This document shows, in pieces, positions 996 through 46,461 of a stretch of DNA of 64,000 nt (the first letter of the stretch is position 1; every line of letters begins with the position of its first letter). A program made the position numbers and the translations under genes. Origin of the DNA: Magnetococcales bacterium (GTDB lineage: Bacteria > Pseudomonadota > Magnetococcia > Magnetococcales > DC0425bin3); NCBI GenBank assembly GCA_015228935.1, contig JADGCO010000005.1, forward strand, positions 13,128-77,127. Reading direction: 5' to 3'. The notes under the pieces are model-generated. The model searched no databases, was not told the DNA's origin, and saw only the letters and a list, made by a program, of their open reading frames with translations.

Positions 996-1144
996 GTAAC
1001 TGTTCATCATCCGGCAATAAACCGGGGTCCAGAAGGCTGGCGACCGGACAGGTCCAGGACGGAATCCTGGTAGGGTTCGGGGCGAAGCCCTCTGACCAGG
1101 GCTTTCGTATTCAGGCTTTTCTTGAAAGGGTGCTGAATAGTTAC
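996..1144 (-). mobile_element. MITE-like element copy (149 bp, short-hairpin subtype)
   Basis: Terminal inverted repeats (TIRs) are GTAACTGTTCA at 996 and TGAATAGTTAC ending at 1144. Internally it carries CCAGGAcggaaTCCTGG and GGGTTCGGGGCGAAGCC. It is near-identical in layout to 19658..19815. An extra solo end (GTAACTATTCAG) lies at 967..978. Confidence 0.8.
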
Positions 1145-1438
1145 CAATTTTTCGATTATTTAAGTGCCATTGGGATCAAGGCCTCTTTTTGTATCCCAAT
1201 CAAATCTGGTTTTGTTATTTGGCACCCGAAGGGGTCTCACGTTATTATGTTGAAATATGGACAAATTACTAAAGATTATCAACGCAGGCGCGTTTTCGCC
1301 TTTCCGGAGTTTTATAAATCTTTTCAGAATCTTGAAACTGTCTTTCATGCCAAACAGGGTGCCTGGACAATTATAAAAATTTTTGAGAGCATACGCCGCA
1401 TGCAAGGAATACCGCTGTCCCCATTCTGGAGAAACTCC

Positions 1439-2290
1439 ATGTCCCAATCCCTGACCATCGATGATATCTGGAAACTCTTTCAGGAAACCAACCGGCTGTT
1501 CCGGGAAGCAGAGATCAGGATGGAACACGATCTCCAAGAAACAAGACGTCTGCTCCAGGAGTCGGACAACAAGTTTCAAGCCAGACGAGAACACGATCTT
1601 CAGCAAGCCAGACAACTCTCCCAGGAGGCAGATGCCAGACTGGAACGCGAGATTCAGGAAGCCAGACGTCTATCCCAGGAATCGCACGCCAAGCTGGAAC
1701 ACGATTTTCAGGAAACCAGACGATTCTTGCAGGAGAGCAGTGCCGAAACTGATCGGAGATTCAGAGAAACTGACCGGAAATTCCAGGAAACTGACCGGAA
1801 ATTCCAGGAAACTGACCGGAAATTCCAGGAAACTGACAAAAAAATCAAGGAAGTGACAACGCTGGTCGGCAGCCTGGGTGGTCGTTGGGGAGAGTTTGTA
1901 GAAGGTTTGGTGGCACCGGCCTGCGAGACCATGTTTGCTGAACGGGGAATTCCGATCCATCGGGTTTACCACAACTTGAAAGCTGGTCTTCCCGGTGGAC
2001 GCAACATGCAAATCGATCTTCTGGTAACCAACACCGACTCCGTCGCGGTCATCGAAGTCAAAAGCCGACTGACGAACGATGACGTGCGCGATCATCTCGT
2101 GCGCGTGGCTGAATTCAAGGAGTTTTTCCCCATGTACGCACATATGCGGGTCATGGGAGCCATGGCCGGCATCGTGATCGATCAAGGTGTGGATCGTCAG
2201 GTTATGAATGCCGGGTTTTACCTCATCGTCCAATCGGGTGAAACAGTCCAATTGGCCAACGAACCCTCTTTCCAGGCACGGTTCTGGTAA
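1439..2290 (+). CDS. coiled-coil protein with C-terminal PD-(D/E)XK (restriction-endonuclease-like) domain, DUF3782-like
   Basis: The ORF runs 1130..2290, but its first ~15 nt lie inside the MITE. The ATG at 1439 (MSQSLTIDDIW) is the preferred start and 1400 is an alternative. The N-terminal half is heptad-like (HDLQETRRLLQES variants). The C-terminal half has IDLLV...VIEVKSRL, which fits D...(E)xK. Confidence 0.6.
   Translation: MSQSLTIDDIWKLFQETNRLFREAEIRMEHDLQETRRLLQESDNKFQARREHDLQQARQLSQEADARLEREIQEARRLSQESHAKLEHDFQETRRFLQESSAETDRRFRETDRKFQETDRKFQETDRKFQETDKKIKEVTTLVGSLGGRWGEFVEGLVAPACETMFAERGIPIHRVYHNLKAGLPGGRNMQIDLLVTNTDSVAVIEVKSRLTNDDVRDHLVRVAEFKEFFPMYAHMRVMGAMAGIVIDQGVDRQVMNAGFYLIVQSGETVQLANEPSFQARFW
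1766..1845 (+). repeat. perfect 21-bp in-frame tandem repeat (3 full units plus a partial unit)
   Basis: The unit gaaactgaccggaaattccag occurs at 1766, 1787 and 1808, with a diverged partial unit from 1829. It encodes ETDRKFQ x3 followed by ETDKKIK. Confidence 0.95.
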
Positions 2291-3016
2291 TCCAAGCGTT
2301 TCAAAGATCACAGTTCAATCGCCAACCTGACAGGCGACGACATCATGATCCAGGCTGTATTGCATGTGGAGGCCATGCTGATTGTGTCGGCCACGGTTTG
2401 GTGACGCCCACCCGACCTGTCCACAACAGACTGGATATGAACACACAGTTGCGCTGGTTTCAAACTGTCTGGACGAATTGCAAAAACAATGATCATTGCC
2501 AAGACTGATCATGATCATCTTTGGGCCGATCTGTCCTGATGATTCTGGAACCTATGCAATTTTGCACGCATATCCGATTTGTTACAAACGGGCCGAATGG
2601 ACGTTACCTCCTCTTGGCCGGACCAATGATCATGGCCCAAACCGCTGGCTTCAAGGACCTTGGTGATTTGGAAAAATGGTACAGGTATGAGTCCCTATGC
2701 AGGAGAATAACAGGATGCTGTCTCCAAAATTATTGCAGTATTAATTAATAATATTTAATATATGCAAGTCAATCATGAAACAATGTAAGATAATAATTAA
2801 TTGACAATTGTCACCAGTTCGTTTAGGTTGATGGGCGATAGTAAGAAAGGACTCCTATAGATCGTTCTCAAGGGCCATGATTCTCGTTACAGCTATCGAA
2901 CGGCAACTTTTGTTCAGACCGTTTTATGATCGGTTGGCTATGTTAAAAAAATCGCGCACAATTCAGAATTGTTGGAACAGATTGACCCAAACGATGATCA
3001 AGACCAAAATTTTTAA

Positions 3017-3179
3017 GAGGCAGTCCATTAACTCTCGGATAAAAAAAATTGGGAAAAAAGATTTTATTAGGGATCCGCCCCAAACCCCGCCAGGAGGAAG
3101 GGCACAGCCCTTCCTCCTGGACCTCCATCCCAGTTTTTCATTCGTTTTTATTGAAATTAACAGGTTATTAGACAGCCTC
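3017..3179 (+). mobile_element. MITE-like element copy (163 bp, long-hairpin subtype 2)
   Basis: TIRs are GAGGCAGTCCATTAAC at 3017 and GTTATTAGACAGCCTC ending at 3179. The core has (degenerate GGATCCGCCCC)-AAACCCCG-CCAGGAGGAAGGGCacaGCCCTTCCTCCTGG (3090..3120) and then CCCAGTTTTTCA. It is collinear with 39448..39614. Confidence 0.75.
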
Positions 3180-3243
3180 CAAGATCATTATTTTTTTGAA
3201 CTTATTAATTTAAATAACGACAGCAGGAGATAAAGGTACAAAC

Positions 3244-3840
3244 ATGAAACGTAAAATATTTATCATCACTATAATTTTATCTGTGTTATCCCCATGGCCA
3301 GTGTATTCTGGGAGCTACAGAACACTTGTTGGTGGTACCGGGTCATCTCATAAGGGTGGGCACTACATAAAAAATACAAGCAAGTCTCCCCCAGCCGCAG
3401 TCGGCAAACAACCCTCATCCACAAGCTACCAGCATAACGGGAGTGACTCCTTGAGCAGTTACCAATATGGCGGGGGTGAATCTTCGATCGGATATTCAGG
3501 TGATTTTTCAAAAACCCCAATGACACATTATGACACTACCCCTCCCAAACAGAAAGCAAAAGGAACTTTTAAGGTTGTAAAGGATAACCGATTTATGCCT
3601 GCCATACAGGAAGTACCCACGATAAAAAGAGATGGCCATGGACATATATCCCGGAGTTCAAACCCAAAAGAAACTTTTGAACGTGCGAACCCATGCCCGT
3701 CAACCGGAAAAACTTCCGGAGCCTGTCCGGGATACGTGGTGGACTACATGGTACCACTCAAGCAAGGTGGTGCTGACGCACCCAGCAACATGCAGTGGCA
3801 AATGGTGCAAGATGCAAAAACCAAAGACAAGTGGGAATAA
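3244..3840 (+). CDS. secreted HNH-endonuclease-family protein, catalytic His replaced by Tyr
   Basis: Signal-peptide-like N-terminus (IFIITIILSVLSPWPVYS). The C-terminus CPSTGKTSGACPGYVVDYMVPLKQGGADAPSNMQWQMVQDAKTKDKWE matches the small periplasmic HNH family pattern CPGYVVDH(I/V)VPL..GGAD.PSNMQWQ. Codon 3745-3747 is TAC (Tyr) where His is expected. Confidence 0.6.
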   Translation: MKRKIFIITIILSVLSPWPVYSGSYRTLVGGTGSSHKGGHYIKNTSKSPPAAVGKQPSSTSYQHNGSDSLSSYQYGGGESSIGYSGDFSKTPMTHYDTTPPKQKAKGTFKVVKDNRFMPAIQEVPTIKRDGHGHISRSSNPKETFERANPCPSTGKTSGACPGYVVDYMVPLKQGGADAPSNMQWQMVQDAKTKDKWE

Positions 3841-4202
3841 ATGGAATTCCCAACTGTTCCCTGTTGAACCTCGTGTACACCAGATCTGCAATACAAAATA
3901 CAAGCAACGCTTGTTTGCGCTGTGAGACACACCTATGTACGCCAGTACATGATCACGCCGATGGTTATGCAAGCCCGCATAAAATGCCATTGTCCAATCC
4001 GCGAAATGCCTGCGAAGCTAAACCGGATCTGCAACATACTGTAATATTTATTTTTTCTGGACAGAAAATTCCCGGATGACAAGTCATGATCGTTTTTCTG
4101 AAATTTTTTCAGTGAAGAACCAGCCCCATGTGGCTAGACTCCGGCAATGCGGTGAATCGACCAAGTAAGCGAGGATTGGCTGACAGATAACGGACTCTGG
4201 GC

Positions 4203-5900
4203 ATGGAAGCGTTGGAGAAGCGATTGGAAAATCAGCAAGAGGAGAACGCACGTTCCGTTCCTTGGCAATCTGTTTTATTCCTGTTCATTCTCGCATTTCT
4301 GACTTGGTTTGCCTTTCTGGGGTATCGCGATCTGCGCGACCCGGACGAGGGACGTTATGCGGAAATTCCCCGCGAAATGGTGGCGACCGGGGATTGGCTC
4401 ACTCCCCGGCTGAATGGTTTCAAATATTTTGAAAAACCCCCCCTGAACTATTGGGGCACGGCCCTGTTTTATAAAATGCTGGGCACGGATCAGGGTGTAT
4501 CCAGGCTCTGGTGCGCGGGATTGGGATTTCTCGGCATCCTCTGGACCTTCTGGCTGGGACAACGTCTCTTCGGAACCCGGGAGGCCCTCTATGCTGCCCT
4601 GTTTCTGACCAGTTCCCTGCTCTATTTTGCCATGGGTCACATGCACACCCTGGACATGGGAACGAGTGTCTTCATGACCTTTGGCATCGGGGCACTTCTG
4701 CTCGCCCAGTCGCAACGCCAGAATCCCGGCCAGGTGCGCAATTGGATGCTTGTGGCCTGGGGAAGTCTGGCCGCCGCCACCCTCAGCAAAGGCCCCATGG
4801 GCGTGGTCCTGCCCGCCGCCGCAGTCACTCTCTATTCCCTCTGGCAACGGGATTGGGCACTCTGGCGACACCTGCACCTGGGCAAGGGCTTGTTGTTCTT
4901 CCTGTTGTTGACAGCCCCCTGGTTTGTGGCCGTCTCCCTGCGCAATCCGGAATTTCCCGACTTTTTTTTCATCCGCGAACACTGGCTGCGCTATACCACG
5001 ACCATCCACAGCCGCAATGCCTCCAATTTTTATTTCATTCCCGTATTGCTGGCCGGCTCTCTCCCCTTCATGGCCCGGGCCGTGACCGCCCTGGCCAGAC
5101 CGGCCTTTGCCTGGCGTCCGGCGGATGCAGGCACGTTTGCCCCATTACGCCTGCTGTGGGTCTATATTGTCTTCATCTTTCTGTTTTTCTCCCTCTCCAG
5201 TTCCAAGCTGATTCCGTACATACTGCCGGTCTTTCCCCCGCTGGCGCTGCTGGTCGGCCACCACCTTGTGCGCATCGATCCGGAAAATGTGCGCCTGGAC
5301 CTCCGCATCCTGGCCGTCATGACGGCCATTCTGGTTGGTGTGGCCATGCTGCCGGACATCATCGCCCATAAATCACGCCTGACGCCCGAAATTCTCGCCC
5401 AGTTTCGCTGGTGGCTCCTGGGAGGAGGCGGAATCCTGGCCGGCGGCATGCTCCTGGTGCGCCATTTTCAATACCAGGGCAAACAAGCCGTCATCACCCT
5501 GGCCATCACCGCCCTGCTCGCCTTCCAGACCATCCATGCCGGCTACCAGACCACGAGTCCGGTCTATTCGGCCCGCCAACTCGCCACGGCCATGGCCCCT
5601 TTTGTACAATCCGGCACACCGGTGTATAGTGTCGATTGCTTCTATCACTCGCTCCCCTTCTATCTGGGCCAGAACGTGACGTTGGTCCGCTACAAGGGTG
5701 AGCTGGATTTTGGCATCGATCAGGAACCCCAACACTGGATCTCCGGCATGGAAGCGTTCTATCAACAGTGGCGACAGGCACCACGGGCCGTGGCCGTTTT
5801 TCACCTCAGGGACGGTCTGTTCCAGCAGGCCCAAAAAGAGCTGTCACCCCTGCGGGTCATCTACCAGGACACCATCCGCATTGCCGTGGCCAAGCCATGA
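4203..5900 (+). CDS. arnT: ArnT-like 4-amino-4-deoxy-L-arabinose (undecaprenyl-phosphate-sugar) lipid A transferase, GT-C fold
   Basis: 565 aa polytopic membrane protein. The first loop, PDEGRYAEIPREMVATGDWLTPRLNGFKYFEKPPLNYW, is typical of the ArnT/PMT family. It heads the arn operon, and its stop overlaps the arnC start (ATGA at 5897-5900). Confidence 0.8.
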   Translation: MEALEKRLENQQEENARSVPWQSVLFLFILAFLTWFAFLGYRDLRDPDEGRYAEIPREMVATGDWLTPRLNGFKYFEKPPLNYWGTALFYKMLGTDQGVSRLWCAGLGFLGILWTFWLGQRLFGTREALYAALFLTSSLLYFAMGHMHTLDMGTSVFMTFGIGALLLAQSQRQNPGQVRNWMLVAWGSLAAATLSKGPMGVVLPAAAVTLYSLWQRDWALWRHLHLGKGLLFFLLLTAPWFVAVSLRNPEFPDFFFIREHWLRYTTTIHSRNASNFYFIPVLLAGSLPFMARAVTALARPAFAWRPADAGTFAPLRLLWVYIVFIFLFFSLSSSKLIPYILPVFPPLALLVGHHLVRIDPENVRLDLRILAVMTAILVGVAMLPDIIAHKSRLTPEILAQFRWWLLGGGGILAGGMLLVRHFQYQGKQAVITLAITALLAFQTIHAGYQTTSPVYSARQLATAMAPFVQSGTPVYSVDCFYHSLPFYLGQNVTLVRYKGELDFGIDQEPQHWISGMEAFYQQWRQAPRAVAVFHLRDGLFQQAQKELSPLRVIYQDTIRIAVAKP

Positions 5901-6868
5901 TACATTCCGAAAAAACTCCCGACATTTCCATCGTGATCCCGGTTTACAACGAAGAAGATGTCCTGCCGCACCTGTTTCGGCGTCTCTATCCGGTCCTGGA
6001 TGGCATGCACCGTCCCTATGAAGTGGTTTTCGTGGATGACGGCAGCCGCGATGCCTCGCCGATCCTGTTGCATCAGCAATTCAGGCAGTTGCCGGAAGTG
6101 ACGCGGGTGGTCATGCTGAAAAACAACTTCGGCCAACATGCCGCCATTCTGGCCGGCTTTGCCCACGCCCATGGCCGCTACGTCATCACCCTGGATGCCG
6201 ACCTGCAAAATCCCCCCGAAGAGATTCCCAAGCTCGTGAGCAAACTGGATGAAGGGTACGATTATGTCGGCACGATTCGGCGGCAACGTCGGGACCGGCT
6301 CTGGCGGCATGTGCTGTCCCGGCTCATGAACCGGCTGCGGGAGAGAGTCACCCGCATCCACATGACCGATCAGGGCTGCATGCTGCGCGGCTATGACCAG
6401 GCCATCATTCACATTTTGCGCGAATCGCACGAAGTGACCACCTACATTCCCGCCCTGGCCTTTCTCTATGCGGCCAAGCCAACCGAGGTGGTGGTGGAAC
6501 ATGAAGAACGCCAGTCGGGTCAGTCAAAATACTCCCTGTTCCGTTTGATTCAGCTCAACTTTGACCTGATGACCGGTTTTTCCACGGCACCGTTGCGCAT
6601 CTTCTCCCTGGTCGGCATCACCATCTCCTGCGCCTCTTTCCTGTTTGTCCTCTATCTCACCATCCGCCGGCTCATGATCGGACCCGAGGCCGAAGGGGTT
6701 TTCACCCTGTTTGCCATCGCCTATTTTCTTATTGGTATCATTTTGTTCGGTATCGGGCTGATGGGAGAGTACATGGGCCGGGTCTACCAGCAAACGCTGG
6801 CCCGCCCGCGTTTTCTGATCCGCACGGTGCTGGAAAAAAAATCTGCTGCGGAGTCGCCTGCACCATGA
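5897..6868 (+). CDS. arnC: undecaprenyl-phosphate 4-deoxy-4-formamido-L-arabinose transferase (GT2)
   Basis: Starts MIHSEKTPDISIVIPVYNEEDVLP, a GT2 signature, with DDGSRD and DADLQ motifs and two C-terminal transmembrane helices. The upstream part of ORF 5768.. is rejected because it overlaps arnT in another frame. Confidence 0.85.
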   Translation: MIHSEKTPDISIVIPVYNEEDVLPHLFRRLYPVLDGMHRPYEVVFVDDGSRDASPILLHQQFRQLPEVTRVVMLKNNFGQHAAILAGFAHAHGRYVITLDADLQNPPEEIPKLVSKLDEGYDYVGTIRRQRRDRLWRHVLSRLMNRLRERVTRIHMTDQGCMLRGYDQAIIHILRESHEVTTYIPALAFLYAAKPTEVVVEHEERQSGQSKYSLFRLIQLNFDLMTGFSTAPLRIFSLVGITISCASFLFVLYLTIRRLMIGPEAEGVFTLFAIAYFLIGIILFGIGLMGEYMGRVYQQTLARPRFLIRTVLEKKSAAESPAP

Positions 6869-7818
6869 CCGCCATGCCGAACAATGCCGTTGTTTTTGCC
6901 TACCACACGGTGGGTGTACGCGGCCTGGCAACCTTGCTCGCCCATGGGTTCAAAGTGCCGCTGGTGGTGACCCATCAGGACGATCCGGGCGAAAATCTCT
7001 GGTTTGACAGTGTGGCCGCCTGGGCCGACCGGGAAGGCATTCCGACCATCACCCCCGACTCGCCCAATCTGCCCGAAGTTCTGGACCGGGTGAACACCTG
7101 CCAACCAGATTTTTTCTTTTCCTTTTATTATCGCCACCTGTTGGGAGCCGAACTTCTCGCGGTTCCGACCCGGGGGGCCTACAACCTGCACGGCTCGCTG
7201 TTACCCAAATATCGCGGGCGCGTCCCCATCAACTGGGCCGTTCTGCACGGCGAACGGAAAACCGGAGCCTCCCTGCACCAAATGGTCCTCAAGGCCGATG
7301 CCGGGGACCTGGTCGATCAGGAAGCGGTCGCCATCCTGCCCAACGACACGGCCCACATGGTCTTTCAAAAGGTGGTTTGTGCCGGCGAGCGCGTTCTGCA
7401 CCGTGCCTTGCCGCGTCTGCTGGCCGGCAACGCACCGCATACCCCCATGAATCTTGCCCAGGGAAGCTGCTTCGGACGGCGGCGTCCCGAGGATGGCCGC
7501 ATCGATTGGCGTGCCCCGGCCTGGACGATTCACAATCTCATCCGGGCCGTGGCCCCACCTTATCCCGGGGCTTTTTTTGAGCATGGCCTCCACCGCATCC
7601 AGGTCCTGGCCAGCCACTATCGACAGGAACCAGCCCAAGGTCCAACATCAGAGTCACCACGCCTGTATTGGGAAGCCGGTCGTTGTCATGTCGATTGCGT
7701 CGATGGCGAGCGCCTGCTGCTGCCCCGACTGGCCATAGACGGACAACCGCTTGATGAACAGGAATTTTTGCGTATCCTTGGCTGTTCCGGCATATCTCTC
7801 GGAATGAACGGGCAATGA
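6865..7818 (+). CDS. arnA: UDP-4-amino-4-deoxy-L-arabinose formyltransferase (stand-alone ArnA N-terminal domain)
   Basis: Formyltransferase motifs are present: [36 protein letters not shown] overlaps link it to both neighbours. At 317 aa it matches the ArnA formyltransferase half only. Confidence 0.8.
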
Positions 7819-13085: not shown

Positions 13086-13243
13086 GCAACCATTCAGAAC
13101 CCTTTCAAAAAAAAGGATTTGATATGAAAGACTTTGTTGGGGCTTCGCCCCAAACCCCACCAGGGGGAAGGGCACAGCCCTTCCCCCTGGACCCCCATCC
13201 CAGTTTTTCAAACGTTTTTTCGAGAAAAATCTGAATCGTTAAC
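13086..13243 (+). mobile_element. MITE-like element copy (158 bp, long-hairpin subtype 1)
   Basis: Left end is GCAACCATTCAGAACCC and right end is CTGAATCGTTAAC. It carries GGGGCTTCGCCCC and the hairpin CCAGGGGGAAGGGCacaGCCCTTCCCCCTGG (13160..13190). It lies between the ATP-grasp gene and the asn-synthase-like gene. Confidence 0.8.
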
Positions 13244-13265: not shown

Positions 13266-15208
13266 ATGTGTGGAATTACAGGTTTTTTTTCCCCGCGTCG
13301 TGAGACTACGGCATCCCTCCTGGAACAACAGGTTGGACGCATGAACGATGCCCTGGCCCATCGGGGCCCGGACGCATCCGGAATCTGGACCGATCCCCAG
13401 GCCGGCATCGCCCTGGGACACCGCCGCCTGGCCATTCTCGATCTCTCTCCCAACGGCCAACAACCCATGGTTGCGGCAAGTGGTCGTTATGTCACCGTCT
13501 TCAATGGCGAAATTTATAATTTTGCCGACCTGCGCCGGCAGCTCACGGACCAGAATGCCGCCCCCGCCTGGCGGGGACACTCCGATACCGAAGTGATGCT
13601 CGCTGCCCTGGACCATTGGGGTGTGGAGGGTGCCCTGCCCCATTTGCACGGCATGTTTGCCCTGGCCATCTGGGACCGTCAGAACCATCTGCTCCACCTG
13701 GTCCGTGACCGCATCGGCAAAAAACCACTTTATTATGGCTGGTTCGGCGGCATATTTGGTTTTGCCTCGGAACTGACCGCCCTGCGTGCCCATCCGGCCT
13801 GGAATGGCAAAATTGACCGGCAAGCCCTGACCACCTATCTCCGTCATGGATATGTACCGGACCCTTTCAGTATTTTTCTGGGCATTGCCAAGCTCACGCC
13901 CGGCTCCATTCTGACCCTGCCAACCGACAGTATCGCCCAGGGAGAGCTGCCCCAACCCCAATCCTACTGGTCATTGGCCACCTGGACCGCCGCCGACCCG
14001 CCTGTTGCCGAATCCGTGGACGAAACAACCGCCCTGCAAGAACTGGATCGCCTTCTGCACCAGGCTGTGAGCGAACGCATGGTGGCCGATGTCCCCCTGG
14101 GCGCATTTCTTTCTGGCGGCATGGACTCATCCCTGATCACCGCTTACATGCAGGCCCATGCTGAACAACCGGTACGCACGTTTACCATCGGCTTTCACGA
14201 GGCCGGTTTTGATGAAGCGGTCTATGCACGTGCCGTGGCCGCCCATCTGGGGACCCGGCACACCGAACTCTATTTGACTGCCGCTGACGCCCTGGCAGTC
14301 ATACCCCGCCTGGCGACCCTCTCCGACGAACCCTTTGCCGATGCCTCGCTGCTCCCCATGTTTCTGGTCTCCCGTCTGGCGCGGGAAGAGGTGACCGTGG
14401 CACTTTCCGGGGATGGCGGCGATGAATTTTTTTGTGGATATGGACGTTATCGCCAGGCCCTGGCCGCCTGGCAACGCCTGGCCACGCTGTCACCCCTTCT
14501 CCGTCACTTGGCCGGAGGTATCCTGGGCCATATTCCGGAACAAGTGTGGCAGATCGCCAACCATGTAAGCCCACGTCTCAATCCCCGGCGGGGTACCATC
14601 TGGAGCAATCTGCTCCGGCACGGTTCGCCTGACCTGCTGTATCAATATCTGGTCTCCTGCCATCTGGACCCGGCGCGTCTGGTGGTGAATGGCACCGAAC
14701 CCGCCACCCGGTTCCTCAACCCGGAGCAATGGGGAGGAAGTCCGGATTTTTGCACCCGCATGATGTTTCTGGATGCCCATACCTATCTGCCCGGTTCGGT
14801 CCTTGTCAAAGTGGATCGCGCCACCATGGCGGTCGGCCTGGAAGCCCGGGCACCCCTGCTCGATACCCGCATCATTGAATGGGCCTGGCGTCTGCCCCGG
14901 CACCTGAAACTGCGGCCCCAAGGTGGCAAATGGTTGTTGCGGCGTCTGCTCCGCAACCACCTGCCTGCCCATCTGATCGAGCGACCCAAACAGGGCTTCG
15001 GGGTTCCGGTGGGAAGCTGGCTGCGAGGTCCGTTGCGTCCCTGGGGTGAGGCCCTGCTCGCCCCGGAACGTCTGCATCGGGAAGGGTGGCTCAACCCGCA
15101 GGCCGTCGGCGAAGTCTGGGCTGCCCATCAGGCCGGTCGGCGTCAGGAAGGCGAACTTCTCTGGGCGATCCTCATGTTTCAGGCCTGGCTGGCAACCATT
15201 GAATCTTC

Positions 15209-15212
<4 letters not shown>
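13266..15212 (+). CDS. asparagine synthase (glutamine-hydrolysing) family amidotransferase
   Basis: Starts MCGITGFF, a class II glutamine amidotransferase with Cys2 as nucleophile. The synthetase PP-loop is SGGMDSS. The upstream ORF extension from 13134 is read-through of the MITE and is rejected. Confidence 0.85.
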
Positions 15213-16815
<1,603 letters not shown>

Positions 16816-19815: not shown

Positions 19816-20071
19816 GTTCCAGCAATCAAATAGCAACCACCAGGAAGGAATTCAGGGGAAACGTGCGGCAACATCGGTGCCCGTTGCCTGGGGTCTTCCC
19901 GGACAGGTCCTGCCATGTCTGGATTCAAGGCGCAAAAATACCGTAGGGTCTGGTCGGGTGCGGCGTCCGCCCACGCAGGGGCTTTCGGCCCCATACCGAA
20001 ACCCTGTTCCCGGATACCAACGGATGCGAGTGGATTCTTGCGGAGATGATGACAGCCAACTCTTTGAAAAC

Positions 20072-29171: not shown

Positions 29172-29183
29172 GGATGCAGCAAG

Positions 29184-31640: not shown

Positions 31641-32677
31641 ATGATCCGATTCGTGAAATGGGAAACCCCCTGGTGCTGATTGTGGATGATGAATCGTTGC
31701 AACGCCTGCTCATGCGGGAAGCATTGAAGCAGGATGGTTTTCATGTCGCAGACGCAGAAAACGGAATCCAGGCCTGGAATCTGATGCAAAATCATTGTCC
31801 CGATATGGTGATTTCCGATGTGGTGATGCCGGAAATGGATGGTTTTGCCTTATGTGAATCCATTCGCCAACAAGAGAAAATGAAGTACCTGCCAGTTGTC
31901 ATGGTCACCAGTCTGGATGACCCGGCATCCATTGATCGTGGCTATCGAATGGGGGCCACTGATTTTATCACCAAACCCATCAACTGGAGTCTGTTGGGTC
32001 ACCGTGTGCGCCATATTTTACGGGCAGCTCGTACCGCCCAGGCCCTGGCAGAAAGAGAAATTGATCTGATACGCACACGCATGGAGATCATCCGGCGTCT
32101 GGGTCAGGCGGCGGAATATCGCGACAACGAGACCGGCCTCCATATCATGCGAATGAGTCGATATTCTGCTTTATTGGGACAAGCCCTTGGCCTCTCTTCC
32201 TTCGACCAGGATCTGTTGCTCAATGCCTCTCCCATGCATGATGTCGGCAAAATCGGCATTCCCGACAGCATCCTCTTGAAACCGGGAAAACTGTCCAACA
32301 ATGAGTTCGGCGTCATGAAACAGCACACCATCCTGGGGGCAAAACTCCTGGAAAATGATCCCGCTCTGCTGTTGCGCACGGCCCACATGATCGCCCTGAC
32401 CCATCACGAAAAATGGGACGGTCATGGATACCCGTATGGACTGTCAGGAAAGGATATTCCAGTCATGGGTCGTATCTGTAGTCTGGCCGATGTGTTCGAT
32501 GCCTTGACTTCCCATCGCCCTTACAAACAACCCTGGAGCGTGACAGATGCGGTCGCTGAAATCCGGAAATGCTCCGGCACGGCCTTCGACCCCGACATGG
32601 TTCGCGTATTCGTTGACATCATTCCCGAAATAGTGAGAATCAAAGATGCATTCTCCGATAAAAGTCCAATTGAGTGA
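31637..32677 (+). CDS. response regulator with HD-GYP domain (putative c-di-GMP phosphodiesterase)
   Basis: REC has ISDVVMPEMDG. The output domain has HDVGKIGIP and HHEKWDGHGYPYGL. An ATGA overlap links it to the upstream kinase. Confidence 0.9.
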   Translation: MNDPIREMGNPLVLIVDDESLQRLLMREALKQDGFHVADAENGIQAWNLMQNHCPDMVISDVVMPEMDGFALCESIRQQEKMKYLPVVMVTSLDDPASIDRGYRMGATDFITKPINWSLLGHRVRHILRAARTAQALAEREIDLIRTRMEIIRRLGQAAEYRDNETGLHIMRMSRYSALLGQALGLSSFDQDLLLNASPMHDVGKIGIPDSILLKPGKLSNNEFGVMKQHTILGAKLLENDPALLLRTAHMIALTHHEKWDGHGYPYGLSGKDIPVMGRICSLADVFDALTSHRPYKQPWSVTDAVAEIRKCSGTAFDPDMVRVFVDIIPEIVRIKDAFSDKSPIE

Positions 32678-32717
32678 AATATTCAGATCAAATCACAAAC
32701 CGTCTCATCAATCAGCC

Positions 32718-33839
32718 ATGATATCCATTCTGATTGTGGATGATGATCACGTAACACGTATTTTTCTGGAAGAATTGCTCCACCAGGAAGGGTATCAGGT
32801 GGTCCTGGCCACCAACGGCCAGGAAGCACTGGTTCGCCTGGATGAAACATGGTGCGATTTGATTTTCATGGACATCCAAATGCCGGTTATGGACGGATAT
32901 CAGGCTACGCAACTGATCAAAGCCATGGAACAACGAAAAGAATGGTTCATTCCAGTAATTTTTCTTACCTCGGTGCTAACCGATCAGGAACTGGCTCACT
33001 GTCTGGAATGCGGCGGCGATGATTTTCTCACCAAGCCCCCCAACCCCATCATTCTGAAAGCGCGACTCCACGCCTGGTTGCAGCGGGCCGATCTGGTCAA
33101 CAGATTGGCCATGAATCGGCTTGATTTGGAAAATGTAATCCTCAAGATGCGCCAGGACGATCAATTCGACCGACGTGGATTGCGTGTCTTGATGACTCCC
33201 TTGGAAAAAACCAACGGAGATATCGTACTCTCCGCCTGCCGATCTGATGGCGTGCAATATCTCGTGGTGGGAGACTTTACCGGACACGGCTTGGCAGCGG
33301 CCGTTTGTGGGCCCCTGGTGTCCGACATTTTCTATCGTCTGACGTTACAGAATGTTCCGCTGCACACAATCATTTCCAAGATCAACGCAACAATTTTTCG
33401 TAGATTGCCGGTCAATATGTTCATGGCTGCCGCCTTCCTGGAAATGGACCGGGCCAAAAGCATCATACGCATCTGGAATGCTGCCATGCCTGCGGTGATA
33501 CTCATCCGTTCCGGAGAAATCGTTTGCAAATTCCCCCCCACTCTTCCACCCCTGGGCATAGGACAGCATTCCATCCATAACGAATCCTGCGCAGAATATT
33601 CCCTGACAGACAGTGACCGGATTTACCTGTATTCTGATGGAATTGTTGAAACCCGTTCACCTGCATGTGAACTGTTCGGCGAAGAACGATTGGACCGTTT
33701 TTTAAAAGAAATCTTTCCCTCCTGGACAGATTTGCGAACCTTACTCAAGGTGCTTGAATCATTTCGCGCCGGACAGGAACAAACCGATGACATTACCTTG
33801 GTAGAAGCAAGACAGGACCAGGGATGGACAGAAACATGA
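32718..33839 (+). CDS. response regulator with PP2C/SpoIIE-type phosphatase domain
   Basis: REC has FMDIQMPVMDG. The PP2C region has VVGDFTGHGLAAAV, LYSDGIVE and DDITLVEA. Start chosen at the ATG at 32718. Confidence 0.85.
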   Translation: MISILIVDDDHVTRIFLEELLHQEGYQVVLATNGQEALVRLDETWCDLIFMDIQMPVMDGYQATQLIKAMEQRKEWFIPVIFLTSVLTDQELAHCLECGGDDFLTKPPNPIILKARLHAWLQRADLVNRLAMNRLDLENVILKMRQDDQFDRRGLRVLMTPLEKTNGDIVLSACRSDGVQYLVVGDFTGHGLAAAVCGPLVSDIFYRLTLQNVPLHTIISKINATIFRRLPVNMFMAAAFLEMDRAKSIIRIWNAAMPAVILIRSGEIVCKFPPTLPPLGIGQHSIHNESCAEYSLTDSDRIYLYSDGIVETRSPACELFGEERLDRFLKEIFPSWTDLRTLLKVLESFRAGQEQTDDITLVEARQDQGWTET

Positions 33840-33996: not shown

Positions 33997-34152
33997 GTGA
34001 ATATTCATCCCCCCATTAAAAAACGTTTGAAAAACCGGGATGAAAGTCCAGGAGGAAGCGGCTCTGCCCTTCCTCCTGGCTGGGTTTGGAGTGGATCCCC
34101 AACCCATCTTTAACATGCTTTGGCCATTTTTGGCAGGTTTTGGCGGGGTTGC
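33997..34152 (-). mobile_element. MITE-like element copy (156 bp, inverted orientation)
   Basis: The plus strand begins GTGAATATTCATCCCCCC, which is the right TIR in reverse orientation, and ends GGTTGC. The hairpin is CCAGGAGGAAG-(10 nt)-CTTCCTCCTGG at 34048..34079. Confidence 0.7.
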
Positions 34153-35015: not shown

Positions 35016-35047
35016 CCAGGAGGAGACGACCAACCGTCTCCTCCTGG
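35016..35047. repeat. solitary 13-bp-stem hairpin related to the MITE core
   Basis: CCAGGAGGAGACG-accaac-CGTCTCCTCCTGG, located ~70 nt downstream of the patatin-like gene stop. Confidence 0.8.
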
Positions 35048-39447: not shown

Positions 39448-39614
39448 GAGAGGCTGTCGATTAACCCTCGGATAAATATAATTGGAAAGAAAAATTTTAT
39501 TGGGGCTTCGCCCCAAACCCCGCCAGGAGAAAGGGCACAGCCCTTCCTCCTGGACCTCCATCCCAGTTTTTCATTCGTTTTATTTGAAATTAACAAGTTA
39601 TCAGACAGCCTCTG
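39448..39614 (+). mobile_element. MITE-like element copy (~167 bp, long-hairpin subtype 2)
   Basis: TIRs are GAGAGGCTGTCGATTAAC and GTTATCAGACAGCCTCTG. It carries GGGGCTTCGCCCC and the hairpin at 39523..39553, which has one uncompensated G-to-A change. It lies between convergent genes. CTGAG is present at both ends. Confidence 0.8.
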
Positions 39615-39748: not shown

Positions 39749-41950
39749 TCAATTCCTGTGATCGCTGGCAACTTTTCTGGTCGGCGAATTTTCTTCCGGT
39801 GTGTTGGTCAGGATCAAGGTACCGGCTGCCGTGGCTTGGACCTGGCCGCTGGAATTCTGGCCAATCGATACCTGATAGGTGGCATGGGCTGCGAGACCAA
39901 AGATCAAGATCCGTTCCACTCCGGCGGGTGCCGGGGGCAAATTCAGGAGGGATTTTTCCCCGGCAGAGACAAAGGCCACGGCCAGATCGGCAATCTGCAC
40001 ACCCGGCATGGTGGCTGGATCGCCCCAGGCTGTCAGGGTTGGCAGAGGCTCTTTGGTGGCAAGACGTGGCAGCATCACGGCCAGAAAACCGTTTGGTACA
40101 GTTCCCTCGGGAACACGGGCTTCCACCCGCCAAGCTCCGGCATCAGCGGGAATGCGCCCGGCAGGGTGATGGTTTTGCCCGTCGGCACCACGAAAGGCCT
40201 CCAGGCCACCCACCACGCGCAAATCAGACGGTGATGGAAGCAGAAAATCCGTGCGCAACGTGGTCCGACCATTGCTGAACACCACATGCTGTTTTCCAAT
40301 CTCGGGTCGATTGATGCCGTGCAGCAACCAGACCGGTCGCAGCCCTGCCGGACCCATGGTCACGGCGTCATAAACCACCAGTACGGGTTGTGAAAATCCG
40401 GCAATGCGCCGAAGAAACAGAAAATGGCGCCGGAAATGGTGCAGGCTTCCGGCAGGATAGAGATTTTCGCCGCGACCGCGCACATAGGTATGGAGGGGAT
40501 AATCCTCGAATGCTTCAATGCCACCCTGGATGAACGCCGGATCCTGCAATTGTTGGACACTCTCCGGCGGTTTGGCGTCGTTTTGCTCGATCAGCAACGG
40601 ACTCCCGGATTTTTCCAAAACCAGAGTATTGTGGGCCACGGTGCGGGTGTAATAATTCCGCCAATGGTCGCTTTTGTAGGCGTCATAAACCCCGCTGTCC
40701 ACAGCCAAAGGTCCCTGGAGGGCCATTTCAAAGCTGTTGCCGTCCCGGTGGGCATGGTTGAAAAAACTCCAAGGGGTGGATTTGAACAGGACGGTCAGGG
40801 AGGATTCACCCTTGCCCAAGGCCCAGGTGTCCCGCATGACGGCGACCCCGGCCCGCTGGAAAAGACGGTTTTCCGGCAGGGTTTTCGGGTCGGTCGGTGC
40901 AACGTCCCGCCTTTTCCAGAGCAACTCCCAAATGCGCTCCTCTTCCCGCCCCCGATCCTTGAAACGGGCTTCCCACCAGGCAGCGATACCGTCATTCCAG
41001 ACATCCGCCACCTTGTAGAGAACCCGCAGCAAATGCGGCGAGGGTGTGGGGGAACGATTGTCGCCGCTCATGAAGACCGATCCGTCATCCTTGAGTCCAT
41101 AGAGGTGAAACAGAACGGCCTGTTGCAGCCATGGTTCGCGGGCAAACCAATCCTCTCCCAGGGCGGTGGCAGCCAGATCCAGAATCTGCGCCGTAACCAG
41201 ATGGTAGTAGCGGGAATATTCCCACCCCATGTGAAAACCGCCATCCATCTCTGCAATGAATCGGTAAAAAGGCAAAAAATGGTTTTCCAGATGGTCGAGA
41301 ATGAGGGGGAGGCGTTTTTCCATGGTCGGACTTTCGCCCTGTACGGCCAATGCTCCCATGAGAACCGTCAAATGGGCATGGTATTCGTGCCCCCCGGAAA
41401 CTCCCTTGAGTTCAAGTTGCTTTTTTTTCTCCAGCCACGTCGTGGCCTCTTCGATAAACTGGATCAACTGTTGTCTGGCGGTCGCATTCAGGCGGGGATG
41501 ACACCAATCGAACAGCATGGCGGCGGCTTCGAGCCGGTCGCGTACCCGCTGGTCATCCTTTTCCTCGCTCAGGGAGAGACGATTGGCCACGGCAAAGGCT
41601 GTCAGGGCTGCTTCCAGATGACCCTTGCCCGGTTTGATGGCATCGAGCAGGGCAAAAACCGGCATGGCCTTGTTGGCCTGGGCAGGATCCAGGTCCAGGA
41701 GCGTGACCCCATTCCACTTTTCCTGGGCATAACGCTGCAAGCGTTCATGGACATCCCGGGCATGTCCGGGTCTGGCCACCCGGGCCTGAAGGTCTGCCAG
41801 GCTTTCGGGTGTCAGGTAAAGCCGTGGATGGTGGGCAACCACCGTATGGGCCAGGGCTGGAACGGGAGCGACCACGACCCATGAAAAAGCCAGAAAAACA
41901 AGCACACACAACAGACGTCTCAGTTCAGAAACAAAGGCCTGCACCCTCAT
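39749..41950 (-). CDS. heparinase II/III-like (alginate-lyase-fold) periplasmic polysaccharide lyase family protein
   Basis: Signal peptide ends ...VVAPVPALA/HT. The N-terminal part reads as an alpha/alpha toroid-like region. The C-terminal part has HAHRDGNSFEMALQGPLAVDSGVYDAY...YYTRTVAHNTLVL, typical of Hepar_II_III. Confidence 0.7.
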   Translation of the reverse strand: MRVQAFVSELRRLLCVLVFLAFSWVVVAPVPALAHTVVAHHPRLYLTPESLADLQARVARPGHARDVHERLQRYAQEKWNGVTLLDLDPAQANKAMPVFALLDAIKPGKGHLEAALTAFAVANRLSLSEEKDDQRVRDRLEAAAMLFDWCHPRLNATARQQLIQFIEEATTWLEKKKQLELKGVSGGHEYHAHLTVLMGALAVQGESPTMEKRLPLILDHLENHFLPFYRFIAEMDGGFHMGWEYSRYYHLVTAQILDLAATALGEDWFAREPWLQQAVLFHLYGLKDDGSVFMSGDNRSPTPSPHLLRVLYKVADVWNDGIAAWWEARFKDRGREEERIWELLWKRRDVAPTDPKTLPENRLFQRAGVAVMRDTWALGKGESSLTVLFKSTPWSFFNHAHRDGNSFEMALQGPLAVDSGVYDAYKSDHWRNYYTRTVAHNTLVLEKSGSPLLIEQNDAKPPESVQQLQDPAFIQGGIEAFEDYPLHTYVRGRGENLYPAGSLHHFRRHFLFLRRIAGFSQPVLVVYDAVTMGPAGLRPVWLLHGINRPEIGKQHVVFSNGRTTLRTDFLLPSPSDLRVVGGLEAFRGADGQNHHPAGRIPADAGAWRVEARVPEGTVPNGFLAVMLPRLATKEPLPTLTAWGDPATMPGVQIADLAVAFVSAGEKSLLNLPPAPAGVERILIFGLAAHATYQVSIGQNSSGQVQATAAGTLILTNTPEENSPTRKVASDHRN

Positions 41951-42001
41951 GGTGGGTCACCTTTCAGGATTCCGGAAAATTTTGCTTGAAAAACCGGACA
42001 A

Positions 42002-44524: not shown

Positions 44525-45625
44525 TCAAAGTCCAAGGCGATTTTTGGCCGGGACATTGTCCCAGGTCCATCCCATGCCCAGGTTCCACCCCCGGAACTGG
44601 AAGACGTCGGCCACCCGCCTGATGATATCGGAAGTTTCGGAAATGGGCATGTTGGGCACATAGACAATGTCATCCGGTTGCAGGAAAAAGTGCCCGGCTC
44701 CGGGTCCCAGGGTCAGGGTTTGTTCCAGGTTGACCCGTGTTCCCACCACCTTTTTCTGGTGTTTGCGGACCACAATAATGCTGTCCAGACGGGCATTGAC
44801 CAGACTTCCTCCCGCCAGGGCCATGGCCTCGGCCACCGTGGCCGGTTTGAGGATGGGGAATGCCCCGGGCCTGGCAACCTGTCCCAGGACATAGATGGGT
44901 GACCCGGCGTGCCGTTCGAGGAAGAGATCCACCTTCAGACTGGGGCTGATCTTGGCATACTGGGCATTCAGATGACTGCCCACCTCCTCAATGGTTTTAT
45001 CCCCCACAAGAACATCCCCGACCATGGGAAAGGTGGTAAAGCCATCCGGACGCACGGTCACAAGCCGGCTTAAGCCCCGGGAAGCGGTATGAAGGTCAAC
45101 CTTCAATTCCCGGATTTGACTCAGGTATTCTGGAACAAGAACATAGATTTCCGGTTTGCGGAATATTTTTGAATAGCGTTCGGTCAACTCTTTTTCCACC
45201 ACACGCACCGAACGCCCCGCCACCTGCACTTCGCCCAGATAGGGTAATGAAATATTGCCATCGGGCCGGATTTTCTGGGTTTCGTTCAATTCCGGATTGG
45301 TGACAAACTTGATGGTGACGGTGTCACCCAGATTGAGATGGAATTCCACCTCTTTCTGCCAGCTTTGGATGGAAAACAGCACGTCCAATTGATCCCCGGG
45401 GGCAATGCGATATTCAGAAAAAATCCGAAAATCTCCGTTTGAAAAGGAGAACGATGATTGTTCCAGGGTGACTTCTTCACCGGTTTTGATGGGAATCGGA
45501 TCCTTGCCTGCACATCCCGGGAAAATCAGGATCAACCCCAGCAGCAGGGAGAGACCAGCCCCCATGCCCAGGCGCAGAGAGGCTGCCATCCATTTGCTGG
45601 AAAGAATGCCATCTTTGTGGCTCAT
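44525..45625 (-). CDS. Wza-like polysaccharide export lipoprotein (Poly_export + SLBB)
   Basis: Lipobox-like IFPGC. The Poly_export region has YRIAPGDQLDV. A repeated SLBB-like segment has V.V.G.V..PG. Confidence 0.75.
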   Translation of the reverse strand: MSHKDGILSSKWMAASLRLGMGAGLSLLLGLILIFPGCAGKDPIPIKTGEEVTLEQSSFSFSNGDFRIFSEYRIAPGDQLDVLFSIQSWQKEVEFHLNLGDTVTIKFVTNPELNETQKIRPDGNISLPYLGEVQVAGRSVRVVEKELTERYSKIFRKPEIYVLVPEYLSQIRELKVDLHTASRGLSRLVTVRPDGFTTFPMVGDVLVGDKTIEEVGSHLNAQYAKISPSLKVDLFLERHAGSPIYVLGQVARPGAFPILKPATVAEAMALAGGSLVNARLDSIIVVRKHQKKVVGTRVNLEQTLTLGPGAGHFFLQPDDIVYVPNMPISETSDIIRRVADVFQFRGWNLGMGWTWDNVPAKNRLGL

Positions 45626-45637
45626 GAAATCTGCCTC

Positions 45638-46381
45638 CTACAACCACCGGAATACAAAACGCGGAATATGAAACACCCGCCGATTGAGGACCACACCCAA
45701 CACGTTGCCATGAATGCGCCGGAGCAGATCGAGGGATTCATGCACCACCACCCGCTTGGTGGATTCACAGCGGATCACCAGGATGACGCCCTGAAAATCG
45801 GCGGTGGCCAGGGTTGCCCCGGAACTGGTCATCAGGGAGGAGGAGTCCAGAATCACGTAATCGCAGGTGTCCCGCAGTCTGGTGATGAGTTCCTTGAAAC
45901 CGGTCTGGGAAAACAAATCGCCTCTGTGGTTGACATCCCCGAATGGCAGCACTTTCAGACCCGGCACATGGGTTTCACACACGGCAGTTTCCAGAGACGC
46001 CGTGCCTGTCAATACGCCCACCAGTCCGGGTGTCTCGGGAATCTGAAAAACACGGGCCAATGCCGGGCTTTTGTCATTGCCATCCACGAGTACCACCCGG
46101 GTGTTGGCCTGGGTGACCAGACCATAAGCCAGGGCCACAGCCGTTGTCGTCTTGCCTTCCTTGGGCAGTGCCGACGATACGATCAAGGTCCGGAGATCCT
46201 TCCCCTCCGAGGCTGAGAGCAGATTGCCGCGAATGCGGGACATTTCGTGGTTCAATTTGGGCACGATCTGCCAGATCATATCCGTCGGATCCTTGTTCAC
46301 GTTGGTTTCTCTCCTGCCGGTGTTTCCTGCCCCGTGAGCATGCGGTTTTCTCTCCAACCCAATATCCAGGCCGTTAAGCAA
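45638..46381 (-). CDS. CpsD/CapB-type bacterial tyrosine kinase (stand-alone BY-kinase ATPase)
   Basis: Walker A is SALPKEGKTTTA, Walker A' is VLVDGN and Walker B is YVILDSS. The start is uncertain: TTG at 46381, GTG at 46300 or ATG at 46279. No obvious C-terminal Tyr cluster was seen. Confidence 0.7.
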   Translation of the reverse strand: MLNGLDIGLERKPHAHGAGNTGRRETNVNKDPTDMIWQIVPKLNHEMSRIRGNLLSASEGKDLRTLIVSSALPKEGKTTTAVALAYGLVTQANTRVVLVDGNDKSPALARVFQIPETPGLVGVLTGTASLETAVCETHVPGLKVLPFGDVNHRGDLFSQTGFKELITRLRDTCDYVILDSSSLMTSSGATLATADFQGVILVIRCESTKRVVVHESLDLLRRIHGNVLGVVLNRRVFHIPRFVFRWL

Positions 46382-46418
46382 ATTTCATTCCGATCTGGAG
46401 AATGATTAAAAAAACCGT

Positions 46419-46461
46419 GTAACTGTTTCAGGCTTTTCTTGAAAGGCTGCTGGATAGTTAC
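46419..46461 (-). mobile_element. 43-bp internally deleted MITE derivative (both TIRs joined)
   Basis: The sequence is GTAACTGTTtCAGGCTTTTCTTGAAAGGCTGCTGGATAGTTAC. This is the left TIR fused to the last ~34 bp of the 158-bp element. Confidence 0.75.

Follow-up and report, generated by a model that had tools for sequence, protein, structure and literature searches.

Mosaic miniature elements in a Magnetococcales genome: transposon-type shells and a hairpin module shared across bacterial phyla

A 64,000-nucleotide stretch of a Magnetococcales genome (assembly GCA_015228935.1, contig JADGCO010000005.1, positions 13,128 to 77,127; hereafter the window) is interspersed with short repeats that a first-pass annotation had described as a single family with subtypes, comprising miniature elements bounded by terminal inverted repeats (TIRs) and carrying hairpins. 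We find that they are instead mosaics, in which one block of about 85 nt, here termed the cassette, is 84-90% identical between copies and is set with sharp borders into at least four unrelated shells. One of these shells has the ends of a known group of insertion sequences (IS), and the heart of the cassette, a module of about 50 nt, is found with nearly every letter unchanged in at least seven bacterial phyla. The interpretation that we favor, with a probability of roughly 60%, is that these are mosaic non-autonomous elements, wherein shells of miniature inverted-repeat transposable elements (MITEs), of the IS66 type and others, carry a DNA hairpin cassette akin to the repetitive extragenic palindromic (REP) units of bacteria, which has spread mainly as their cargo.

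An nhmmer profile built from the eight near-full copies of the first-pass annotation and used to scan the window recovered all eight (E 2e-44 to 2e-24), so that their existence and homology are not in question, and additionally matched a ninth core at 21832-21924 (E 1.6e-9) and an element consisting only of ends at 46427-46461. Repeat-family detection, run separately, also groups the copies. Altogether, the first 46.5 kb of the window holds ten non-coding copies of 43-163 bp, namely nine that bear the module (six on the plus and three on the minus strand) and one 43-bp mini copy running from end to end (Table 1). The TIR motif GTAACYRTTCAG (at most one mismatch) occurs 10 times in the window as against 0.34 expected, and the motif GAGGCWGTCNATTAAC four times as against 0.15 expected, bearing out the terminal repeats that had been proposed. 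The copies are, as had been stated, intergenic and in both orientations; the single open reading frame (ORF) that spans one, at 2877-3233, is without a Pfam match. The two lengths of hairpin stem are likewise seen (14 bp and 6-7 bp), as are the core fragment at 21855-21930 and the end-to-end derivative at 46419-46461, which is a mini element of TIRs placed back to back. Other details need correction. The copy given as 19658-19815 begins at 19668 and is 148 bp rather than 158 bp long, because its supposed first 10 nt are flank, including an 8-bp target duplication; that given as 39448-39614 runs from TIR to TIR at 39450-39612; and the length of exactly 158 bp ascribed to several copies holds for 13086-13243 and 15209-15366 and for none of the others. 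At 35016-35047 the 13-bp hairpin beginning CCAGGAGGA is present, but neither the nhmmer profile nor the covariance model described below finds it, and it is possibly related to hairpin 2 of the module or an ordinary 3' hairpin. A further suspected fragment at 19975-20030 is supported by neither search. The stretch from 46.5 to 64 kb of the window and the 9 kb of contig that come after it hold no copies; the density is therefore patchy.

The borders of the cassette were drawn from an alignment of the six copies with the 14-bp hairpin, in which it reads TT-GGGGCTTCGCCCC-AAACCCCG-CCAGGAGGAAGGGC-ACA-GCCCTTCCTCCTGG-ACCTCCATCCCAGTTTTTCAWWCGTTTTT. Between shell types, identity drops to a background of 31-37% in the flanking sequence, about 45 nt on the left side and 30 nt on the right. 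The GAGGCWGTC.ATTAAC shell is found in two copies that are 89% identical along their full length (39450-39612 and 3017-3179). In the copies at 996 and 19668, the GTAAC left arm and hairpin 1 are shared with the copies at 13086 and 15209, but what follows is a different, three-hairpin core. The 'family' is accordingly a mosaic whose common denominator is the module, GGGGC-TYC-GCCCC / RAACCCCR / CCAGG-variable-CCTGG / ACCCC. In DNA folds the whole elements form long imperfect palindromes with their TIR arms paired and the module at the apex (z -2.6 to -7).

The affinities of the GTAAC shell could be established by its ends and its target duplications. Its TIRs are 12-17 bp long and read GTAACYATTCAG(N)ACCC. 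An 8-bp duplication is perfect around 19668-19815 (GTTCCAGC at 19660-19667 and 19816-19823, plus strand), matches at 7/8 positions around 15209-15366 (GAATCTTC at 15201-15208, GAATCGTC at 15367-15374) and at 6/8 around 46419-46461 (AAAACCGT / GATACCGT), and is again perfect (CGCACTTT) around a 450-bp element with the same ends in a Magnetococcales relative (locus L039). This subtype thus acts as a true MITE. The GTAA ends together with the 8-bp duplications suggested IS66, and hence metagenomes were scanned for the TIR motif GTAACYATTCAGNACCC. In loci L198 and L202 two inverted copies of the motif, separated by 1.5-1.6 kb, enclose a single ORF with the IS66 DDE transposase domain PF03050 (E 5e-42 and 1.4e-44, respectively) along with zf-IS66 and DUF6444. 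Transposase homologues were found by tblastn within TIR pairs in L174, L234 and L243, the full-length element in L243 having a perfect 8-bp duplication, and additional transposase fragments adjoin single TIRs in the scanned loci. Beside these full-length elements of 1.5-2.2 kb there are dozens of metagenomic MITEs of 55-191 bp with the same ends, unrelated interiors and no module, some of which show perfect 8-bp duplications (e.g. L167). Further, ISDge4 of Deinococcus geothermalis, a single-ORF member of the ISBst12 group of IS66 whose transposition has been observed, has the ends GTGACTACTCAGCA / GTAACTGCTCAGCA and an 8-bp direct repeat, CCTCGATG (PMC12898284). The shared ends, the 8-bp duplications, the full-length elements encoding PF03050 and the parallel with ISDge4 therefore identify the GTAAC shell as an ISBst12-group MITE (IS66 family), an explanation that is solid for the GTAAC copies. 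The first-pass annotation had recognized no named family: it was right that these are not REP, BIME, ERIC or Correia elements, the ends of the GTAAC shell do have a named relative, and the elements are fragments of a known IS only as far as their termini are concerned. The autonomous element with the same TIRs, which it had proposed to look for, is found in the metagenomes.

On the interpretation favored here, a single-ORF DDE transposase encoded elsewhere would recognize the GTAAC TIRs in trans and, upon insertion, would leave the 8-bp target duplication; the copies with GAGGC and GCGTCCA ends would be analogous shells. The cassette of about 85 nt would be the cargo, and its two-hairpin module of about 50 nt a REP-like palindromic unit that spreads in this genome mainly by hitch-hiking inside MITE shells. 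Since many elements share the module, it could act as a patch of homology, at which recombination would generate chimeras sharply delimited where the cassette ends. The mini-palindrome of the 43-bp element at 46419-46461 recurs in the left arms of the larger copies, which suggests that the larger elements may have arisen by the use of a distal right end and capture of the DNA lying between. Copies would then persist where they are least harmful: they occupy 5/7 of the convergent spacers in the window, as against about 3/29 of the tandem and 2/6 of the divergent ones. The copy at 15209-15366 lies between the convergent genes asnB (which ends at 15212) and obg (on the minus strand, ending at 15363), both of which stop at the TAA of the terminal GTAAC, and its insertion has apparently replaced the native C-termini and stop codons of the two.

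The module also occurs outside this genome. A search of a species-representative genome collection with the 24-mer GGCTYCGCCCCRAACCCCRCCAGG gave at least 120 loci, against about one chance match by our own calculation even if the whole collection had 70% GC. Going by record labels, the matches listed include several Magnetococcales metagenome-assembled genomes (MAGs), Ca. Magnetaquiglobus, many Acetobacteraceae, among them the isolate Acidisphaera sp. L21, an alphaproteobacterial MAG with dozens of copies, Nitrosovibrio, Desulfovibrionaceae, Ca. Adiutrix, termite-gut Synergistaceae, a Firmicutes MAG, Ruminococcus, Puniceicoccales and Streptomyces. The flanks are specific to each lineage and conserved within it, and the module is constant. 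It is also present on the Pseudoroseomonas cervicalis plasmid pL11-C and on complete Bacillus plasmids, and it is absent from 5,426 complete E. coli genomes. Among the relatives a third hairpin follows ACCCC(C)R in 56 of 98 copies, thereby reiterating the module, and inverted dimers occur (L012, L020, L071; pairs about 225 nt apart in the alphaproteobacterial MAG), of which the window has none. In that MAG (MFD03726.bin.1.14, loci L003-L120, contigs CAWKAN01) we observed a repeat family of more than 300 nt in dozens of copies, with the layout h1-h2-h3, a long central GC hairpin and h3'-h2'-h1', so that the module itself supplies the terminal inverted repeats.

Viral collections yielded a few additional occurrences. 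A CAAGG..CCTTG variant is found on human-gut fragments of 59% GC that were deposited as 'Bacteriophage sp.'. These faecal matches carry RuvA, RuvC, FGGY kinase and GH31 genes and are fragments of bacterial chromosomes, and a phage-borne single-stranded DNA (ssDNA) element was rejected as their explanation. Two of six IMG/VR loci score strongly with the covariance model, and one of the two, L127 (IMGVR_UViG_3300045821_000070, 68% GC), is a genuine prophage fragment that carries genes for terminase and portal proteins. Its inverted module pairs, at 1546-1651 and 5137-5337, occupy the spacer between terminase and portal and a site downstream of an ORF that comes after the scaffold gene, lacks a Pfam match and may encode the major capsid protein. 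Such a prophage is a possible vehicle for transfer of the module between hosts.

The pattern of variation indicates the level at which the module is constrained. A covariance model (R1) built from 17 cross-phylum copies, none of them from the window or from plasmids, found all nine window cores (E 8e-12 to 3.5e-5). Across 121 distinct copies aligned to it, 98.5% of the cells are Watson-Crick pairs, with 110 double-sided changes and about 6 G-U cells; the alignment being fitted to the model, this pairing is somewhat inflated, but shuffled and slid controls lie far lower. Hairpin 1 is almost invariant, its loops TCC, TTC and TTT reading GGA, GAA and AAA on the opposite strand; GCGAAGC is an exceptionally stable DNA mini-hairpin. 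In hairpin 2 only the inner stem is free to vary, and does so with Watson-Crick compensation: in 103 of 118 copies the hairpin anchored on CCAGG/CCTGG is perfect, the inner stems being of 22 kinds and the loops mostly 3 nt long, while none of the shuffled controls has a stem of 8 bp or more. Orientation bias, for which the first-pass annotation had suggested a check, is not seen relative to gene 3' ends (33 sense versus 38 antisense; 10 versus 14 in tandem contexts; crude gene calls). The near absence of G-U pairs and the equal numbers of sense and antisense copies suggest that what is constrained is DNA, whether double-stranded or as either of its strands, and not a single strand of RNA, so that the module would be maintained at the DNA level.

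Several considerations weigh against the hitch-hiking of the module in MITE shells. Foremost, it leaves unexplained why the module should be conserved almost to the letter across phyla while the shells are lineage-specific, which is its main problem. It likewise does not account for the relatives in which inverted pairs of the module serve as the terminal inverted repeats of palindromic elements of 275-450 bp. Independent insertion of the cassette into different shells would produce identical sharp borders. The GAGGC and GCGTCCA shells have neither a clear target duplication nor an identified parent IS. Finally, there is no IS66 transposase gene in the readable 73 kb, that is, the window and the 9 kb beyond it, for which reason we infer, rather than observe, mobilization in trans in this genome.

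An alternative is that the module itself is mobile, as a REP/REPIN-type ssDNA substrate of a trans-acting HUH tyrosine transposase (RAYT/TIRYT or IS200/IS605-like), with the unpaired ACCCC(R) as the tag and with the cassette having been inserted into, or excised with, palindromic shells. We consider this unlikely, although several observations fit it: the module shows the grammar of a hairpin with a conserved unpaired flank, its (ACCCCR-hairpin)n unit is reiterated, with the third hairpin in over half of the relatives' copies (56/98), and its pairing is Watson-Crick only; head-to-head inverted doublets in Magnetococcales and the alphaproteobacterial MAG resemble REP dimers (PMC3733652); and the cassette has no TIR or target duplication of its own in spite of its sharp borders in unrelated shells. 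However, the REP super-families are defined by an unpaired GTAG or CGTC tag (PMC3733652), and the flanks in the 121 distinct copies are RAACCCCR and ACCCC, with neither tag. A phmmer search with approximate Y1 transposase queries, covering about 2 Mb of loci that bear the module, turned up no Y1 ORF, though CGTC REPs are likewise without a known transposase (PMC3733652), and all-against-all clustering of the ORFs beside module loci found no recurrent neighbor gene. Known REP families are, moreover, lineage-specific and do not cross phyla. Other DNA-level identities that we tried were rejected: of the two suggested by the GTAAC/GTTAC ends, IS200/IS605 ends are contradicted by the 8-bp duplications and integron attC sites by the lack of cassette arrays around the copies, and the Chi-like (CCTGGTGG) and tRNA-minihelix/RCCA motifs are not kept by the R position and the CAAGG variants.

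A different kind of connection emerged from plasmids. In a BLAST search of PLSDB (7.3 Gb of plasmids) with a 74-nt module query, we recovered small Bacillus thuringiensis plasmids, pTX14-2 and its relatives (E 6e-7). In pTX14-2 the matched sequence belongs to a GC-rich island, about 200 bp upstream of mobV and on the far side of an inverted repeat that resembles oriT; its location in non-coding DNA eliminated an artefact due to Bacillus collagen-like genes. The island is conserved in 454 small, mostly MOBV mobilizable plasmids of Bacillus, Priestia, Listeria, Sporosarcina, Latilactobacillus and others. Five that we aligned keep GGGCTTTGCCC-AAACCCAC-hairpin-ACCCC with compensatory changes within the hairpin, and the covariance model, derived as it was from chromosomal copies, gives them 56, 37, 35, 32 and 19 bits, the matches over the full model length being pTX14-2 (56 bits, E 1e-9), pSU1 (37), pLMST6 (35) and pHT8_1 (32). 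In each of the three plasmids checked (pTX14-2, pSU1 and pHT8_1) the C-rich strand runs antisense to mobV, as it does to rep in the two with an annotated rep, pSU1 and pHT8_1, by virtue of which the displaced strand would carry the G-rich form. From its position we take the island to be presumably a single-strand origin (sso). In pSU1, where rep, tetL and mobV share one strand, the island is placed between tetL and mobV; pMV158, whose layout is the same, has ssoU and ssoA flanking its mobilization cassette (PMC5737340).

It could therefore be asked whether the module is an ssDNA signal akin to the sso of rolling-circle plasmids, the G-rich strand of which would fold with GRA/AAA triloops and recruit RNA polymerase or primase, or act as an ssDNA promoter, the chromosomal copies being derived from, or the source of, such origins. 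The BLAST and covariance-model scores (32-56 bits), the compensatory changes in hairpin 2 in a region that all 454 plasmids conserve, and the placement upstream of the oriT-like repeat and mobV, in pSU1 at the site where pMV158 has ssoU (PMC5737340), are consistent with this, as is the antisense disposition of the C-rich strand to mobV and rep, given that sso activity is orientation-dependent (PMC5703833). Yet the chromosomal copies are dense, occur in both orientations and often form inverted pairs, none of which is needed for a priming signal; the similarity is limited to about 50 nt; and IS66 transposition is not known to involve ssDNA. On balance we regard such a role for the chromosomal copies as improbable. 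Comparably doubtful is the broader proposal that the module, GGGGC-GRA-GCCCC ... on its G-rich strand, might be an ancient, horizontally moving ssDNA signal, which would serve as the lagging-strand origin of Firmicutes rolling-circle plasmids and would have been copied, in at least seven phyla, into chromosomes, prophages and MITEs; recognition of the folded ssDNA by a universal host enzyme such as RNA polymerase or primase would then be the reason for its letter-level conservation.

We give little credence to the possibility that the module works as an RNA, be it a hairpin of the 3' untranslated region that stabilizes the upstream mRNA, an attenuator or terminator, or a part of a small RNA (sRNA), and is retained by the host as has been proposed for REPs. 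The intergenic location of the copies, their enrichment in convergent spacers of the window, a mild enrichment near gene 3' ends elsewhere (71 versus 50), the great stability of the hairpins, the T-runs 13 nt past hairpin 2 in the window subtype and a sub-threshold match to CrfA would all be in keeping with it. But a strand-specific RNA element, as the main explanation, is contradicted by the equal sense and antisense counts and the few G-U pairs among the 121 copies, and an RNA role cannot account for conservation in the non-coding origin regions of plasmids. The scan for the intrinsic-terminator pattern was negative at the copies at 13086 and 15209, the T-runs beginning 13 nt after hairpin 2. 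Rfam had no family for the module at the gathering threshold, its only hits in the window being two tRNAs, and a run on one copy at E up to 10 gave nothing meaningful; the best sub-threshold scores were 20.9 bits for Entero_5_CRE (gathering score 46) and 19.8 bits for CrfA (gathering score 38). The last of these concerns 13138-13191 on the minus strand, which resembles the 5' part of the Caulobacter sRNA CrfA, a hint that some annotated sRNAs may include hairpins similar to the module. Lastly, that the cross-phylum matches are GC-rich chance similarity or MAG contamination, with only the local MITE family being real, is barely credible: many matches do come from MAGs, the sequence of the module is rich in GC and of low complexity, and a few singletons (the Streptomyces chromosome, the Ruminococcus contig end) could be chance, but the loci number at least 120 against about one expected, include several copies per genome with conserved lineage-specific flanks, extend to isolates, complete plasmids and a bona fide prophage fragment (terminase, portal), and preserve the hairpin by compensatory changes.

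Table 1. Repeat copies and related features of the window
Feature	Coordinates	Strand	Evidence and remarks
Solo additional TIR GTAACTATTCAG	967-978	+	17 nt outside copy 996-1144
GTAAC-shell copy, classical three-hairpin core	996-1144	-	nhmmer E 2e-24; covariance model 1048-1093(-) E 1.7e-6; TIRs; core hairpins h1 GGGCTTCGCCCC, 6-bp CCAGGA..TCCTGG, CCAG..CTGG
GAGGC-shell copy, 14-bp-hairpin cassette	3017-3179	+	nhmmer 3017-3172 E 2.3e-42; covariance model 3067-3126 E 4e-9; TIRs; target duplication looked for, none clear
GTAAC-shell copy, 14-bp-hairpin cassette	13086-13243	+	nhmmer 13086-13242 E 2e-44; covariance model 13137-13196 E 8e-12; DNA fold z -4.5; left end GCAAC, right end GTTAAC; between RimK-like gene and asnB
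GTAAC-shell copy, 14-bp-hairpin cassette	15209-15366	+	nhmmer E 2.8e-44; covariance model; DNA fold z -6.9
GTAAC-shell copy, classical core	19668-19815	-	nhmmer E 1.2e-24; covariance model; between convergent tRNA-Pro and tRNA-Arg
Classical core without shell	21855-21930	+	nhmmer E 1.6e-9; covariance model 21866-21911 E 1e-6; layout GGGGCTTTGCCCC-ATACCCAG-CCAGGGC..GTCCTGG-ACCTG-CCAGGG..
Cassette copy, degenerate h1, GCGTCCA...TGGACGC shell	24510-24634	+	nhmmer 24498-24624 E 1.9e-27; covariance model 24519-24578 E 3.5e-5; in divergent intergenic region
Cassette copy	33997-34152	-	nhmmer E 1.3e-36; covariance model 34042-34102(-); alignment; degenerate IS66-type end GTGAATATTCATCCCCCC on one side, opposite arm unrelated
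Isolated 13-bp hairpin CCAGGAGGAGACG..CGTCTCCTCCTGG	35016-35047		repeat families; hairpin scan
Second GAGGC-shell copy	39450-39612	+	nhmmer 39450-39605 E 9.4e-42; covariance model; TIRs
43-bp mini element, two IS66-type TIR arms back to back, without core	46419-46461	-	TIR search; repeat families

The genes near the repeats are ordinary: a RimK-like ATP-grasp protein, asnB, obg, a polyprenyl synthase and a DegT aminotransferase, with a sigma-54 activator, hybrid kinases, a patatin and rlmM among the further flanking genes. A perfect 19-bp inverted repeat, CCCAATGGCACTTAAATAA at 938-956 and TTATTTAAGTGCCATTGGG at 1156-1174, encloses the copy at 996-1144 together with the solo TIR at 967-978, as though one or two MITEs had entered the loop of a pre-existing hairpin. 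From position 4013 onward the window is 99.4% identical to the related MAG GCA_015229045.1 (JADGCJ010000168.1, our locus L263), whose contig shares only 4013-7195, where there is no copy with which to compare presence or absence between strains. Upstream of 4013, the sister MAG has a pair of SIR2_2 and DUF87 (HerA-like) genes in place of the AT-richer segment of the window (45% GC at 2-4 kb), in which copies 996 and 3017 are found along with three ORFs lacking a Pfam match. Window positions 1-4012 are thus a strain-variable island with its border near 3968-4024. One ORF of this end of the window, at 1130-2290, has nested repeats (four 21-nt units at 1745-1849 and 83-nt units at 1479-1735), matches nothing in Pfam and probably encodes a coiled-coil repeat protein. 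A 53-nt tandem repeat (17075-17245; 3.2 copies, 90% identity) lies between rpmA (L27) and rplU (L21), and the 99-aa ORF called over it has no Pfam match. The paralogous clusters of hybrid histidine kinases and response regulators at 24687-33839 and 51741-62054 give rise to many direct-repeat families unrelated to the MITEs. The cumulative GC skew, negative before and positive after, has a minimum at about 40000-42000, which could mark a replication origin, a terminus or a rearrangement; all repeat copies but one are on the negative-skew side.

The assignment to ISBst12/IS66 makes the GTAAC shell an ordinary one, and at the same time documents a widespread MITE family of an IS group for which transposition was recently observed. 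It is the module that is unusual. Bacterial palindromic repeats are normally genus-specific, and this one shows near-base conservation from Magnetococcales to Synergistaceae, Firmicutes and Actinomycetota. Searches with its 11-12-nt substrings in the open-access full text of PubMed Central and bioRxiv returned only unrelated eukaryotic or primer matches; it may have been overlooked because it falls outside both REP super-families and is absent from E. coli. The plasmid match provides a testable link between chromosomal hairpins and a defined replication function, which, if true, would bear on the origin of sso elements, on the limits of plasmid host range and on how repeats cross the boundaries between phyla.

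Among known systems, the Correia elements of Neisseria, ERIC, RUP and bcr1 have much the same general form, being non-coding, about 100-160 bp long, bounded by TIRs, endowed with long hairpins and located near gene ends. Their sequences and ends are nevertheless unrelated to those of the window elements, their target duplications differ (TA for Correia), and we know of no report of an internal module shared across phyla in any of them. REP, REPIN and BIME elements come closer to the module, in that they too are short GC-rich palindromic units with conserved unpaired flanks, reach high copy numbers in intergenic locations, often between convergent genes, and form inverted dimers and mosaics with other motifs. 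They differ in their tags, GTAG or CGTC as opposed to ACCCC(R), in the RAYT genes, none of which was found in the 2 Mb of module loci, and in being genus-specific rather than conserved across phyla, with E. coli lacking the module. The module is present in Acetobacteraceae, a family that the survey of Di Nocera et al. (2013; PMC3733652) lists as without CGTC repeats.

The MITEs of the ISBst12 group are the counterpart of the GTAAC shell: the ends in the window (GTAACYATTCAG.ACCC) are close to those of ISDge4 (GTAACTGCTCAGCA), the target duplication is 8 bp, the elements are 43-450 bp long and without an ORF, and the full-length elements, whose ends are identical, each code for one IS66 DDE transposase. 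Unlike other MITEs with these ends, the window copies bear a foreign structured cargo, the hairpin cassette; only about half of them have this shell, and the readable part of the genome has no cognate transposase. For the cargo, a parallel is the region of the plasmids pTX14-2, pHT8_1, pSU1, pLMST6 and pBEST195S that we regard by its position as an sso. There the copy is single, in a fixed orientation relative to rep and mob, and followed by further conserved blocks that the chromosomal copies lack, whereas the nine in the window are chromosomal and of mixed orientation. Still, the plasmid region has GGG(G)C-TTT-GCC(C)C, AAACCC(C)AC, a variable CAAGG..CCTTG hairpin and ACCCC in the very order of the module, matches the covariance model over its full length with up to 56 bits, and keeps its structure by compensation, as do the chromosomal hairpins.

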